The notes beneath the pieces are model-generated. The model was not told where the DNA came from. It made no database searches and was given only the letters and a program-made list of their open reading frames with translations. Shown one piece after another: positions 4,122 to 10,303 of a stretch of 17,560 nt of DNA (the stretch's first letter is position 1; the number at the start of each line of letters is the position of its first letter). The translations under genes were made by a program, and so were the position numbers. The stretch is from the NCBI GenBank assembly GCA_964508365.1, contig CAZDTP010000068.1, positions 1 to 17,560 on the forward strand. The letters run 5' to 3'. The stretch comes from an uncultured archaeon (GTDB lineage Archaea; Asgardarchaeota; Lokiarchaeia; Sigyniarchaeales; SOKP01).

Positions 4122-5216
4122 TCAAGTTAAGAAGGGATAATCAGTATAACCTTTTTCACCAGGAGTGTAAAAGGTATGCTTATCCCATCGTGTTATAACC
4201 CCACTAAGCTCAAATCTTTTTGGGAGATCTGGATTAGAAATAAAAAGCTTTCCAAACGCTACGAGATCAGCTAGATTCTCTTGTAGAACTCTATTCCCTT
4301 TTTCTTGGGTAAATTCGTTATTTATCATTAAACACCCTTTATATAATGGCCTAAAATGTTCGGCGATATTAGGTTCGGCAAAGCGCACTTGAGTTACATC
4401 TGTGAACGGTTCGGATAGGTGTAAATATGCTAAGTCGTAATCGTTCAGCTTTTTTACTATATATTCGAATGTAGGGATAGTCTCTTCGTCAACTGTAATT
4501 CCAAATATTTCATGAAACGAGGGATTTAACCTCGCTCCAATACGATTCTCTGGTATTACTTCCTTCATCTCATCAATGACCTCGAATAGAAATTTGGCTC
4601 GGTTTTCAATAGACCCCCCATACTCGTCCGTTCTATTGTTAGAACATCTCGAGAAGAATTGATGGAATAAATACCCATTTGAGGAATGAATCTCAACGCC
4701 GTCAAATCCCGCTTTCATAGCATTACTAGCGGCATTCTTGAAATCTTGGATTGTCTGTTTGATGTCATCAAGAGTCATTGCCCTAGGAGTAACAGTATCC
4801 TTAAACCCATCGTGAGTGAAAGATTTTGATTTAGGGTTTATTGCAGATGGAGCCAGTGGCAGTTCGCCGTTGTGAAGATCGGGATGTGACATTCTTCCAA
4901 CATGCCACAATTGGATAAAGATTTTTCCTTCCCTTTTATGGACAGCGTCGGTGACTAACTTCCAACCATCGATTTGCGCCTCTGAATAGATACCGGGAGT
5001 GTTAATGTAACCGACAGCATCTTTCGAGACTTGAGAACCACAAGTGATTATCAACCCTGCAGAAGATCTCTGCTCATAATATTTAGCCTGAAGCTCAGTG
5101 GGGCGATTTTCTATATTATTAGCCCTATTACGAGTCATAGGAGCCATTACCATCCTATTTTTTAGGTGTAAATCCCCCATCTTTAGTTGTTTCAAAAGAG
5201 GTTGTACTCTAAACAT
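4122..5216 (-). CDS. Old Yellow Enzyme family NADH:flavin oxidoreductase / alkene reductase (classical NemA-like)
   Basis: KNRMVMAPMTR, IQLWHVGR, AGFDGVEIHSSNGYL (H177/N180/Y182), RTDEYGGSIENR, DLVAFGKLFISNPDL and C-terminal TFYTPGEKGYTDYP. Confidence 0.95.
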   Translation of the reverse strand: MFRVQPLLKQLKMGDLHLKNRMVMAPMTRNRANNIENRPTELQAKYYEQRSSAGLIITCGSQVSKDAVGYINTPGIYSEAQIDGWKLVTDAVHKREGKIFIQLWHVGRMSHPDLHNGELPLAPSAINPKSKSFTHDGFKDTVTPRAMTLDDIKQTIQDFKNAASNAMKAGFDGVEIHSSNGYLFHQFFSRCSNNRTDEYGGSIENRAKFLFEVIDEMKEVIPENRIGARLNPSFHEIFGITVDEETIPTFEYIVKKLNDYDLAYLHLSEPFTDVTQVRFAEPNIAEHFRPLYKGCLMINNEFTQEKGNRVLQENLADLVAFGKLFISNPDLPKRFELSGVITRWDKHTFYTPGEKGYTDYPFLT

Positions 5217-7434: not shown

Positions 7435-7628
7435 AAATTCCAATAACAATTTATATTCTACTTTAAAGCTAATTTCTCTTGAAAATATAGAGTTACTTAA
7501 AATGAAAGAGAAAGAAAAGAGGATTGAAGAGATCAAGAAAATCATATACTGCATCTGTAGTATTGGCACCTTTTAAAAACAAGTTAAAAAATATTTTGTC
7601 AATTTTTCACTAAATTTTTAAATTGATT

Positions 7629-7647
7629 AAAAAAAAAATAAAAAAAA
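7629..7647 (-). terminator. Oligo-T terminator of the thiolase operon (T8-A-T10 on the minus strand)
   Basis: Long A-tracts on + begin 8 nt beyond the thiolase stop at 7656. Confidence 0.6.
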
Positions 7648-7655
7648 GGTTAGAA

Positions 7656-8843
7656 TTAATCTCGTTGACCTAATATGGTCGTGGAACAAACGCTAAACGC
7701 ACCGCCGAGGTTATGAGCCAAACCGATCTTGGCATCAGGCACTTGTCTTCCTTCAGCACGTCCTTGAACTTGCTTGCAAATCTCCGTGAGCATTCGACAA
7801 CCGGTACTTCCAATCGGATGACCAAAACTTTTTAGCCCTCCAGATGGATTTACGGCTGTTTCTCCATCCCAATTGAATGTTCCTTTCTTAAGTTCTTCAG
7901 CTGCTTGACCTCTATCACAGAATTGTAAGTCTTGACAGTTTATGAGTTCTGTGATCGTAAAACAGTCATGAACTTCTGCGGCGTCAATTTCTTTTCTTGG
8001 ATCTGTGATTCCCGCTTCTTTATAAGCATAATTCGCTGCTTTTACAGTTGATGGGAATGCTGTAAAGTCTGCTCCGGGGCCACCTGGAGGTATGTACCAG
8101 GGAAAATTGGTGTGAGCCGAAATCGCATTGGCTTTCACCATAACGTAATCATCCGCATGAGCATAACTTTCTGCGAGTTCTGGTCTCGTAAGGATCAACG
8201 CAGCAGCTCCGTCTGACATAGCGCAGCAGTCGAATCTACCAAGGGGATCTGCAATCATAGGGGCATTCATCGCGGCTTCAATGGTAATTGGACTCCGAAA
8301 ATGTGCTTTTGGATGGTGAGAACCGTTTTCATGATTTTTTACGGCAACTCGAGCTAGATCTTCTTTAGTCCAGCCGAACTCGTGAAAACATCTAGTTGCT
8401 GCCATCGAAAACATTGCTGGTGCGGAAGGTGTTGGATACACTGGATGTCCAAATTGGGTAAAGCCAGGCAAACCACTACCTCCCTCGTCCATTAGCTTCT
8501 CCACACCACAGGCAAGAACAATATCATATGCGCCAGAGGCAATAGCAAAGGAAGCATTACGAAAGGCGTCCATCCCTGAAGCGCAATAATTTTCCACTCG
8601 AGTGGCAGGTTTACCATCCATTCTTAGGATATCTTCTACCATTGCACCTGATAATCCCGTAAAATAGTAAAATATCCCAATCCAGCTCGCATCAATCTCA
8701 TCCTTGGTGACTCCGGCGTCTTTTAAAGCGCTTTGGAACGCTTCAAAAAGCAGGTCGTATTGCGACTTGTCCCACCGTTCTCCATATTTTGTCATATCGC
8801 AACCAATAATCGCGACTTTGTCTTTAATACCATGTCTTACCAT
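7656..8843 (-). CDS. Acetyl-CoA acetyltransferase/thiolase, SCP2/archaeal type (395 aa; start corrected from 8891 to 8843)
   Basis: RVENYCASG (Cys87), KNH, DCCAMSDGAAA, EVHDCFT (His292), NPSGGLKSFGHPIGSTG (His342) and HNLGG. The ATG at 8843 follows GGAGGT by 7 nt and removes the overlap with the upstream gene. Confidence 0.95.
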   Translation of the reverse strand: MVRHGIKDKVAIIGCDMTKYGERWDKSQYDLLFEAFQSALKDAGVTKDEIDASWIGIFYYFTGLSGAMVEDILRMDGKPATRVENYCASGMDAFRNASFAIASGAYDIVLACGVEKLMDEGGSGLPGFTQFGHPVYPTPSAPAMFSMAATRCFHEFGWTKEDLARVAVKNHENGSHHPKAHFRSPITIEAAMNAPMIADPLGRFDCCAMSDGAAALILTRPELAESYAHADDYVMVKANAISAHTNFPWYIPPGGPGADFTAFPSTVKAANYAYKEAGITDPRKEIDAAEVHDCFTITELINCQDLQFCDRGQAAEELKKGTFNWDGETAVNPSGGLKSFGHPIGSTGCRMLTEICKQVQGRAEGRQVPDAKIGLAHNLGGAFSVCSTTILGQRD

Positions 8844-8850
8844 ATTTATT

Positions 8851-8856
8851 ACCTCC
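8851..8856 (-). promoter_or_regulatory. Shine-Dalgarno GGAGGT for the thiolase
   Basis: The minus strand reads ACT TAA A GGAGGT AATAAAT ATG: upstream stop, RBS, then start. Confidence 0.85.
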
Positions 8857-8857
8857 T

Positions 8858-10303
8858 TTAAGTTCTCCCCCTCACGGGTCGACATTTCCAATAATAGTTT
8901 TTAAATTCAGCACCTTCATGTTCTTTTCTGAAGGTCAACTCGACTCTCATCCCAATTTTGACGTTTTCTTCGGGGTTTTCAATTTCAGTCATATTGACGA
9001 GCACTCTACCACCACCATCGAGGTCTATCACGCATCGAGGGACAGGTGTGTTGAGATATGCTCCACCAACCAAATGATCAAGGGTATATGTAAAGAGTTC
9101 TCCTTCCTTTGCGAGTTTCACTCTTTCAAGTTGATCATCAGCCCTACAGACGGAACAAGCTCGTGAGAGGACTGGATATTGCACAGCTCCACAATTCTTG
9201 CATTTTAACCCATACCACTTATAAACAGAAGGAGTATCACGCCAGATTAGAACAGCTGAGCTCTTACGTGTATATCTATCCTTATTGAGTAATTCTTTAG
9301 ACTCAATGAACTTGGTGTAATTTTTTAGGAGGGTCATCGATTTTTGGTGACCGATAAAACCCATTCTTCCTTTGCCAATATCTCTAACACCATCTTTATC
9401 TCGAACTTGCATCAGAATTGCATCAGCTCCATCTCCAAAACCAGCCATGATGATCTTGGCATCTGGTTTAGGTCTTCGTAAGCTGGAAATGAGGAGCATG
9501 AAGGGCATTGGCGTCCCCATGTCACCTACTTGAAAGAATATGCTATTTTGAGCGACTCCTTGACCAAACTTCATTATTTTCGAGATTCTACTGTGCATTC
9601 GGGGGTTATTATAGTAATAAGCTGCAATTGCGATGTCTTCAGAAGGATTTAAATTATTGCGTTTCAAGATTTCAGACATTACTTTAGTAATGCTTTCCAC
9701 GTAAAACTTCGCGTCCATTTTGACTTCAAAAGTTCTGATAAACTCATCCTTATCCGCTCTTTTCCACGGTCCAGTCACATTCGCTGAGACTGAATAATAA
9801 TCATCAATCGAAATTGGGATATTTTCTTCATCCGCAACTAGTATAGCTGCAGCCCCATCTGCAAATCCATATTCCCACATAGTTGAGGGTTCAGGTTTTC
9901 TAGTATCAGCTGCAATTACCAAGATACTATTGATATCTTTGTTAGCCTTGATTGTATCAACAGCTCTAGTTAAAGCTGTTGTACCTGCTTTAGTAGAGTC
10001 CGTGAAATCTGCGGTAATGATGTCCTCTCTCATATCGAGTACGGTAGCGATTAATGACGCTGAATCTTTTTCGGTATAAACTTGTGTTGTGGAAGCAAAG
10101 AATATCCCATCAACTGTCTTTGGGTCAATTCCCGCCAAGCAATCAAGTCCTGCTTCTACGGACATTGTCAAGCTGTCCTCATCTTCCATCGCTACTGCTT
10201 TAGTCCCAGGAACAGTTGGGAAATCCCATGCTTTAGCGACAAGTTCTCTGGGCAGCATGTATTTAGGTAAATACGCACCATAACTTTTAATACCAATTGG
10301 CAT
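8858..10303 (-). CDS. HMG-CoA synthase-like (catalytically degenerate) domain fused to a DUF35 Zn-ribbon/OB-fold domain
   Basis: N-terminal GIKSYGAYLP, DEDSLTM, KAGT, ADGAAA and GFGDGADA fit the HMGS/KASIII fold. C-terminal C368xxC371...C383xxC386 followed by GELFTYT...GGRVLVNM...IGMRVELTFR...YYWK fits DUF35. The catalytic Cys position holds Thr104. Confidence 0.9.
   Translation of the reverse strand: MPIGIKSYGAYLPKYMLPRELVAKAWDFPTVPGTKAVAMEDEDSLTMSVEAGLDCLAGIDPKTVDGIFFASTTQVYTEKDSASLIATVLDMREDIITADFTDSTKAGTTALTRAVDTIKANKDINSILVIAADTRKPEPSTMWEYGFADGAAAILVADEENIPISIDDYYSVSANVTGPWKRADKDEFIRTFEVKMDAKFYVESITKVMSEILKRNNLNPSEDIAIAAYYYNNPRMHSRISKIMKFGQGVAQNSIFFQVGDMGTPMPFMLLISSLRRPKPDAKIIMAGFGDGADAILMQVRDKDGVRDIGKGRMGFIGHQKSMTLLKNYTKFIESKELLNKDRYTRKSSAVLIWRDTPSVYKWYGLKCKNCGAVQYPVLSRACSVCRADDQLERVKLAKEGELFTYTLDHLVGGAYLNTPVPRCVIDLDGGGRVLVNMTEIENPEENVKIGMRVELTFRKEHEGAEFKNYYWKCRPVRGRT

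Follow-up and report, generated by a model that had tools for sequence, protein, structure and literature searches.

What can a thiolase do when the protein encoded beside it has the fold of hydroxymethylglutaryl-CoA (HMG-CoA) synthase (HMGS) but none of its catalytic residues? This question is raised by two genes at 7656–10303, on the minus strand, of a 17,560-nucleotide stretch (contig CAZDTP010000068.1, assembly GCA_964508365.1; hereafter the window) from an uncultured archaeon of the Asgardarchaeota (Lokiarchaeia; Sigyniarchaeales; SOKP01). A first-pass annotation, made from the sequence alone, had taken these genes for a thiolase and an HMGS/DUF35 fusion acting as its pseudo-enzyme scaffold, a pair that could not make HMG-CoA. 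Our analysis confirmed the genes, their coordinates and their strand, and supports both parts of this reading, as the HMGS catalytic tetrad is lost throughout the family, the altered domain is under strong purifying selection and an intact HMGS is encoded elsewhere in the genome. We propose that the fusion and the thiolase probably form one heteromeric thiolase, with a catalytic SCP-x subunit and a non-catalytic HMGS-like/DUF35 partner, which would act reversibly, most likely in thiolysis, and would make no HMG-CoA.

A live thiolase beside an HMGS fold without its catalytic tetrad

The fusion gene (8858..10303; ATG at 10303, stop codon at 8858–8860) encodes 481 residues in one open reading frame (ORF), on which Pfam and NCBIfam searches placed DUF35 OB and Zn-ribbon domains above Pfam cut-offs. 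Its HMGS-like thiolase-fold domain, delimited by Foldseek and alignments, takes up residues 1–345 (9269..10303), and its DUF35 module, a rubredoxin-like Zn ribbon and an OB fold (PF12172 and PF01796), residues 351–481 (8861..9253). Scores against HMGS equivalogs fell below their cut-offs, with 164 bits for the N-terminal 310 residues against PRK04262 (cut-off 244) and 100 bits for the fusion against TIGR00748 (cut-off 353). The nearest solved chains by sequence were those of PhlA (9SKH_A, 1e-20; 5M3K_A, 2e-19), followed by Methanothermococcus thermolithotrophicus HMGS (6ESQ_I, 3.5e-17), MucA (8.5e-17) and the DUF35 chain 6ESQ_E (1.8e-10). An AlphaFold2 single-chain model of the fusion (predicted local distance difference test score 89.7, predicted template modelling (TM) score 0.91) matched 6ESQ_I in Foldseek with a TM-score of 0.91 and a root-mean-square deviation of 1.9 Å, and PhlA and MucA with 0.88 each.

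The catalytic tetrad described for HMGS by Liao et al. (E82, C114, H238 and N270; PMC12960953) aligned to T72, T104, Y230 and D261 of the fusion. In alignments with 6ESQ_I, PhlA and intact Asgard HMGS sequences, GSES reads ASTT (Glu to T72), EFACKAGT reads TDSTKAGT (Cys to T104), FHQPN reads YYYNN (His to Y230) and GNT reads GDM (Asn to D261). The structural comparison with archaeal HMGS and PhlA that the first-pass annotation had suggested thus returned the same fold with a replaced tetrad; the three catalytic replacements it had listed were borne out, and the fourth, Asn to D261, was absent from its list. The four Zn-ribbon cysteines that it had called intact, C368, C371, C383 and C386 (nt 9134–9223), are present and family-invariant.

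The loss is shared by the whole family. In a set of 107 close homologues, Leu occupies position 104 in 78 sequences, Thr in 29 and Ile in 1, with hardly any variation at T72 or in the YYY triplet; among 134 representatives of 50%-identity clusters, not one has Glu72 or Cys104, and the four Zn cysteines are essentially invariant. Over the wider set, position 104 is most often Leu (95/136), varying otherwise among L, T, V, P, F and I, and the surrounding pocket holds T72 in 116/136, S103 in 113/136 and Lys or Arg at position 105 in 130/136 sequences; D99 and E78 of the HMGS-like domain are invariant in a 30-sequence alignment. A compensating Cys or His in the HMGS pocket would have spoken for a live enzyme, and the family alignment contains no invariant Cys or His in the N-terminal domain, so that a replacement nucleophile appears unlikely. 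The dead HMGS-like domain is nevertheless not decaying and is under strong purifying selection, with a ratio of non-synonymous to synonymous substitution rates (dN/dS, computed for unsaturated pairs) of 0.05–0.10, compared with 0.05–0.13 for DUF35 and 0.02–0.06 for the thiolase.

The SCP-x-type thiolase (7656..8843; 395 residues, ATG at 8843) retains C87, H171/N173, H292-D-C-F295 and G341-H-P343. As first annotated, Cys87, HDCF and GHP are intact, and we found that C87, H171, HDCF (292–295) and GHP (341–343) are invariant in 30/30 aligned family members. The protein passes PRK06157 (507 bits; cut-off 403), and its nearest solved chain is the thiolase of the archaeal complex (6ESQ_A, 5e-64), ahead of BbsB (7PXP_C, 4e-45) and PhlC (1e-26). 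The genome holds about nine SCP-x thiolase paralogues and seven DUF35 genes. In several relatives, a second thiolase copy, 73–79% identical to that of the window, was seen (L039, at 7452–8639 and 8698–9873; G240:C47; G273:C151; G207:C6; G144:C4 and C6; and others), in some of them in tandem behind the first (L039, G240); a second fusion gene was not found in those genomes, and two thiolase isozymes may share one scaffold there.

The two genes are tightly coupled, as had been noted: the fusion stop codon TAA (8860–8858) is followed by AGGAGG (8857–8852) and the thiolase ATG (8843), leaving an intergenic spacer of 14 nt (8844..8857). The ORF listing also offers an upstream TTG start for the thiolase at 8891, but homologues begin at the ATG. 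Nine nucleotides past the thiolase stop, a T8-A-T10 run (7629..7647) resembles an archaeal oligo-T terminator and may act as one, judging from its sequence. TATA-like strings are uninformative on a promoter for the pair because they are ubiquitous at a genomic GC content of about 30%. The neighbours in the window are genes for tetratricopeptide-repeat (TPR), GCN5-related N-acetyltransferase (GNAT), longin-like, mandelate racemase/muconate-lactonizing (MR/MLE) and old yellow enzyme (OYE) proteins. Further along, at 1301–1363 on the same strand and 6.3 kb downstream of the thiolase, a 21-residue stretch, LCLNLGGVFEVASVTILGQKD, is 67% identical to the C-terminal 21 residues of the thiolase and is not followed by a stop codon. 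Its genome-wide tblastn E-value (0.086) is marginal, and the stretch could be what is left of a thiolase 3′ end.

Intact HMGS genes, co-inheritance and descent

The genome of the window (4.07 Mb, 100% complete) encodes a single intact HMGS, of 544 residues, on contig C13 (G000, L002:631-2265, minus strand), with the Pfam domains HMG_CoA_synt_N and _C and with Glu in GTETITY, Cys in NACAGGT and a candidate His in YTFHAP. A separate, catalytically intact HMGS, which the first-pass annotation had advised looking for, is therefore present; the dead pair is not the lipid-pathway synthase, and the mevalonate HMGS is a separate gene. The C13 protein has an additional C-terminal region of about 150 residues with Cys-rich motifs, no thiolase gene adjoins it, and homologues of 50–57% identity stand in for archaeal-type HMGS in two related families (G162, G237).

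In other families, relatives have a canonical HMGS (GSES, EFACKAGT, FHQPN and GNTYS) alongside the dead pair, as in G006 and G007. The single-contig genome G038 holds three forms: a canonical HMGS with the full E-C-H-N tetrad, behind which lie a thiolase and a DUF35 gene; an unfused cluster of dead HMGS-like, DUF35 and thiolase genes; and the fused dead pair. Unfused dead HMGS-like genes were seen at six loci (G038:C1:1222895-1223905; G007:C30; G237:C150 and C105; L119, in G012; and L120, in G028); Glu, His and Asn are replaced in these genes, Cys in 5/6 of them, and each adjoins a stand-alone DUF35 gene and a thiolase in which Cys, HDCF and GHP are retained. The unfused clusters are a second, three-gene form of the dead-HMGS/live-thiolase design. 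L119 and L120 had been considered as canonical HMGS outgroups and were rejected when alignment revealed both to be dead, unfused HMGS-like genes; coexistence was assessed with truly intact HMGS genes. A mirror image was seen at L117:4442-5602 (plus strand) in G001, a 1.4-Mb genome of another family, where a canonical intact HMGS is followed by an altered thiolase. With Glu in place of the catalytic Cys (RIETGESSG) and FDSY in place of HDxF, this thiolase looks dead beside a live HMGS.

The fusion and the thiolase travel together. A tally over 300 genomes of the phylum counted full-length matches to the fusion of at least 39% identity and thiolase orthologues at E ≤ 1e-120; both genes were confined to one set of seven families and absent from the remaining 23. 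In family f1, the fusion was found in 53/68 genomes and the thiolase in 51/68, and the pair was found in 2/6 (f2), 1/1 (f3), 1/1 (f4), 5/5 (f10), 1/1 (f11) and 6/6 (f21) genomes of the others. Mismatches in presence were few, most of them at contig ends, and the thiolase lay directly downstream of the fusion in 50/60 family loci that hold both genes. Five genomes that are 98–100% complete, two of them from the genus of the window, lack both the fusion and the orthologous thiolase. From this matched presence and absence it follows that the pair is inherited and lost as a unit and is dispensable.

Fused homologues reach far beyond this phylum. The family is very large and abundant: clustering at 50% identity gave 334 clusters with E ≤ 1e-30, and a bacterial member has matches in at least 7,000 clusters formed at 90% identity. 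Outside the Asgard archaea, it occurs in Bathyarchaeia, Ca. Alkanophaga and Methanomassiliicoccales, and among bacteria mainly in Dehalococcoidia and other Chloroflexota, as well as in Thermodesulfobacteriota, Binatia, Actinomycetes and others; it is also carried on large plasmids of cultured degraders (Sphingobium, Rhodococcus, Variovorax and Azoarcus), where homologues of 31.5–34% identity have the same dead motifs. The first-pass annotation had mentioned similar fusions in anaerobic bacteria, but the family is not confined to these. No named Pseudomonas homologue was present among the top 120 matches of a search from a Pseudomonadota member. Hits of 72–94% identity named Thor-, Heimdall- and Odinarchaeota had given an impression of extreme conservation across classes, which the genome-based tally rejected: fusion matches above 58% identity lie almost entirely in the window's own family, and those of other families at 38–51%.

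A quick LG+G4 tree search set the fused family apart, with support of 100, from four unfused Asgard HMGS-like outgroup rows, two of which are catalytically intact. Of 16 Asgard rows, 15 formed one clade (support 99) whose branching mirrors genome kinship, which fits vertical descent, and the remaining row grouped with Bathyarchaeota, Alkanophaga and Dehalococcoidia.

The pair is richer in GC (41–45.5%) than its genome (31.8%), above the 99th percentile of long ORFs, with GC at third codon positions (GC3) of 0.35 against a mean of 0.256; other GC-rich genes are the real HMGS on C13, which is also GC3-rich, and the OYE gene at 4122–5216. Horizontal transfer might explain this composition, but the Asgard part of the tree follows kinship and the real HMGS is likewise GC3-rich, and expression or amino-acid constraint is at least as likely an explanation. 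RNA-library contigs from four studies match both genes, some with 100% identity, and none match the flanks; as no RNA contig spans the fusion–thiolase junction and the contigs could stem from DNA carry-over, they give a weak hint of expression.

Candidate reactions of the pair

Across Asgard families, the conserved neighbourhood consists of the pair alone. Among the 80 loci most similar to the query, counted from our own ORF calls, beta-oxidation-type genes lay within 6 kb in 34, with acyl-CoA dehydrogenase (ACAD) at 17 loci, enoyl-CoA hydratase (ECH) at 13, family III CoA-transferase at 11, short-chain dehydrogenase/reductase (SDR) at 9 and 3-hydroxyacyl-CoA dehydrogenase (HCDH) at 5. The Variovorax operon runs SDR, MaoC, fusion, thiolase, ACAD and CoA-transferase; that of Rhodococcus, CoA ligase, ring-dioxygenase alpha and beta subunits, fusion, thiolase, ECH and ACAD; and that of Azoarcus, MarR, fusion, thiolase and CoA-transferase, all three with a dead triad and a live thiolase. 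The Rhodococcus locus (L142; Rhodococcus qingshengii plasmid pdjl-6-4, 3103–9558) has a gene order that we take to resemble the ibuprofen ipf cluster (ligase, dioxygenase, SCP-x thiolase and DUF35), and its context hints that this branch of the family may help to strip an acyl-CoA side chain from aromatic acids. The genome of the window itself abounds in beta-oxidation-type genes, with 14 ACAD, 21 ECH and 8 HCDH matches.

In the heteromeric thiolase that we propose, the 395-residue subunit would do all the chemistry, with Cys87 as the nucleophile that accepts the acyl group and His342 of GHP and the HDCF and KNH motifs completing the site. The 481-residue fusion would be the non-catalytic, structural half of an obligate heteromer, its HMGS fold covalently joined to a DUF35 connector; by analogy with the archaeal thiolase/HMGS/DUF35 complex and with PhlABC and MucABC, it may hold the thiolase in an oligomer and form the opposite wall of a CoA-binding chamber at the subunit interface. 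DUF35 links the thiolase dimer to the HMGS dimer in the archaeal complex, where the two share the CoA chamber at their interface; PhlABC and MucABC retain this chamber despite their dead HMGS-like subunits, and MucB without its partners is inactive (PMC12960953). We infer the physical binding of the two proteins, as well as the direction and the substrate of their reaction, which would be 3-oxoacyl-CoA + CoA ↔ acyl-CoA + acetyl-CoA, most likely running towards thiolysis in a beta-oxidation-like breakdown route, with HMG-CoA being made by the separate intact HMGS. Thiolysis is favoured because no exergonic HMGS step would pull condensation, because the bacterial gene context is catabolic and because a complex of the same design from Pseudomonas fluorescens, PfACAT/HMGS–DUF35, showed cleavage of acetoacetyl-CoA and no formation of either acetoacetyl-CoA or HMG-CoA (Liao et al., Nat Commun 2026, PMC12960953).

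Several points weigh against this assignment. No beta-oxidation neighbour indicates a substrate or direction in the Asgard genomes, and the likeness to the P. fluorescens complex was judged by published features. The assay of that complex could hardly have detected a thermodynamically unfavourable condensation, so that a biosynthetic role with a coupled reductase is compatible with it. The conservation of T72, S103, K/R105, D99 and E78 could also reflect ligand binding rather than pure scaffolding.

The scaffolded thiolase might instead run in the Claisen direction as a biosynthetic condensing enzyme, feeding acetoacetyl-CoA to the separate HMGS or starting a CoA-based, acyl carrier protein (ACP)-independent route of fatty-acid synthesis or reverse beta-oxidation, with DUF35 recruiting a reductase and a dehydratase. 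Thiolases are reversible, and there is a precedent in the ketothiolase (KT)/DUF35 pair of Sulfolobus acidocaldarius, which assembles with a ketoacyl-CoA reductase and a dehydratase into a fatty-acid synthase complex; multiple KT/DUF35 pairs were reported in 67% of Asgard genomes screened, with a mean of 3.8 per genome (preprint, bioRxiv 10.1101/2024.07.05.601840). That the pair is an outlier in GC and GC3, like the real HMGS, may mean high expression. However, complete (98–100%) genomes of the same genus that lack the pair still hold other thiolases, and the pair therefore cannot be the sole source of acetoacetyl-CoA; the neighbours across the family are catabolic (ACAD, CoA-transferase, and ligase with ring dioxygenase), and no reductase or dehydratase is conserved beside the pair in Asgard genomes. 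We consider the condensing direction unlikely, and slimmer still is the chance of its more specific form, in which the pair, inherited vertically in the Promethearchaeial lineage, would carry out the condensation step of fatty-acid synthesis or reverse beta-oxidation on CoA esters, independently of ACP, with the dead HMGS/DUF35 protein as a docking platform for reductase and dehydratase. Were this specific form true, the pair would be an Asgard counterpart of the Sulfolobus fatty-acid synthase complex, with implications for the ‘lipid divide’ and how eukaryotes arose.

The HMGS-like domain could also be more than a scaffold, its remodelled pocket binding a metabolite or an acyl part in substrate selection or allostery, or supporting a cysteine-independent reaction. 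Its replacement residues are indeed conserved rather than random, at the five positions named above, and its dN/dS is in the low range of a functional enzyme. Set against this are the variable, mostly Leu, nucleophile position, the absence of a conserved Cys or His in the domain and the example of the tetrad-free PhlA and MucA, which hold no catalytic residues of their complexes, the pocket being in PhlC and MucB (PMC12960953); we think an active pocket quite improbable. A Friedel–Crafts C-acyltransferase of the PhlABC/MucABC kind, using acetyl-CoA to acetylate a non-CoA acceptor, for example a phenol, is very improbable. It has in its favour that PhlA proteins are the closest solved chains to the fusion and that their HMGS tetrad is lost likewise, down to the change of Asn to Asp. 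Every family member keeps HDCF, however, whereas loss of HDxF marks PhlC and MucB (PMC12960953), no polyketide synthase (PKS) or non-ribosomal peptide synthetase (NRPS) genes lie nearby, and the thiolase is far closer to the archaeal thiolase (5e-64) than to PhlC (1e-26). The first-pass annotation had held thiolysis to be at least as likely as Friedel–Crafts acylation, a judgement that the retained HDxF motif and the beta-oxidation neighbours across the family support, and a thiolytic heteromer remains the reading that we prefer.

Comparison with known thiolase, HMGS and DUF35 systems

Public sources routinely label such fusions ‘hydroxymethylglutaryl-CoA synthase’; on a dead fusion this label would falsely credit a genome with a step of the mevalonate pathway, the real HMGS here being a different gene. 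The design itself is already known from the 2026 bacterial assay, of which the Asgard pair is a well-supported further example. New here are the strict co-inheritance of the two genes, the coexistence with an intact HMGS of either type, the unfused dead Asgard clusters and the purifying-selection figures. Liao et al. view the bacterial dead complex as an evolutionary intermediate freed by the methylerythritol phosphate (MEP) pathway (PMC12960953), an argument that is inapplicable to the Asgard pair because the archaeon depends on mevalonate; taken together, these new observations argue against the intermediate view. It follows from the Asgard data that the dead-HMGS thiolase complex is no mere side effect of bacteria having the MEP pathway; in archaea, the dead pair is an old, selectively maintained paralogue beside a working mevalonate complex. 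The live HMGS and apparently dead thiolase of L117 support the idea that the architecture itself, and not both activities, is the conserved trait.

The archaeal mevalonate complex of M. thermolithotrophicus (6ESQ/6ET9) shares all three folds, thiolase, HMGS and DUF35, with the pair. It differs in that the tetrad is replaced here, DUF35 is fused rather than separate and scores against the HMGS equivalogs are below cut-off, and the pair would be unable to channel acetoacetyl-CoA into HMG-CoA. PhlABC of P. protegens and MucABC of S. macacae likewise combine a non-catalytic HMGS-like subunit and DUF35 with a catalytic subunit of thiolase fold. However, PhlC and MucB are without the HDxF motif (PMC12960953), whereas HDCF is invariant in the family described here, and those systems are encoded by three separate genes in secondary-metabolite clusters, as opposed to two genes with no PKS or NRPS genes among the window neighbours or in conserved Asgard neighbourhoods. 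The benzoylsuccinyl-CoA thiolase BbsAB of Geobacter metallireducens, the S. acidocaldarius KT/DUF35 pair and ChsH2–Ltp2 have in common with our pair an SCP-x-type thiolase with HDCF that relies on a DUF35 partner. In BbsAB, by contrast, BbsA is DUF35 alone, without an HMGS-like domain; there is no bbs operon context here, and equivalog scores were 34 bits for BbsA (cut-off 250) and 161 for BbsB (cut-off 750). The pair is thus not the mevalonate complex, because it has no tetrad; not PhlABC or MucABC, because HDxF is kept and there is no PKS/NRPS cluster; and not BbsAB, because the scores against its equivalogs fall far short of the cut-offs and BbsA itself lacks an HMGS-like domain.

The first-pass annotation knew of no characterised function for such fusions, a statement that the assay of the P. 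fluorescens complex has overtaken; roughly 1,000 ‘minimal’ bacterial HMGS–ACAT–DUF35 loci have been counted (Liao et al., PMC12960953). PfACAT/HMGS–DUF35 and the pair of the window both have an HMGS-like domain and DUF35 in one polypeptide that has lost the E-C-H-N tetrad, an adjacent thiolase with Cys, HDxF and GHx (catalytic His 294 in P. fluorescens and 292 here) and no PKS or NRPS neighbours. The pair of the window differs in being archaeal (Promethearchaeota), an isolated two-gene unit and coexistent with an intact HMGS. On every feature compared, its design matches the PfACAT/HMGS–DUF35 type.

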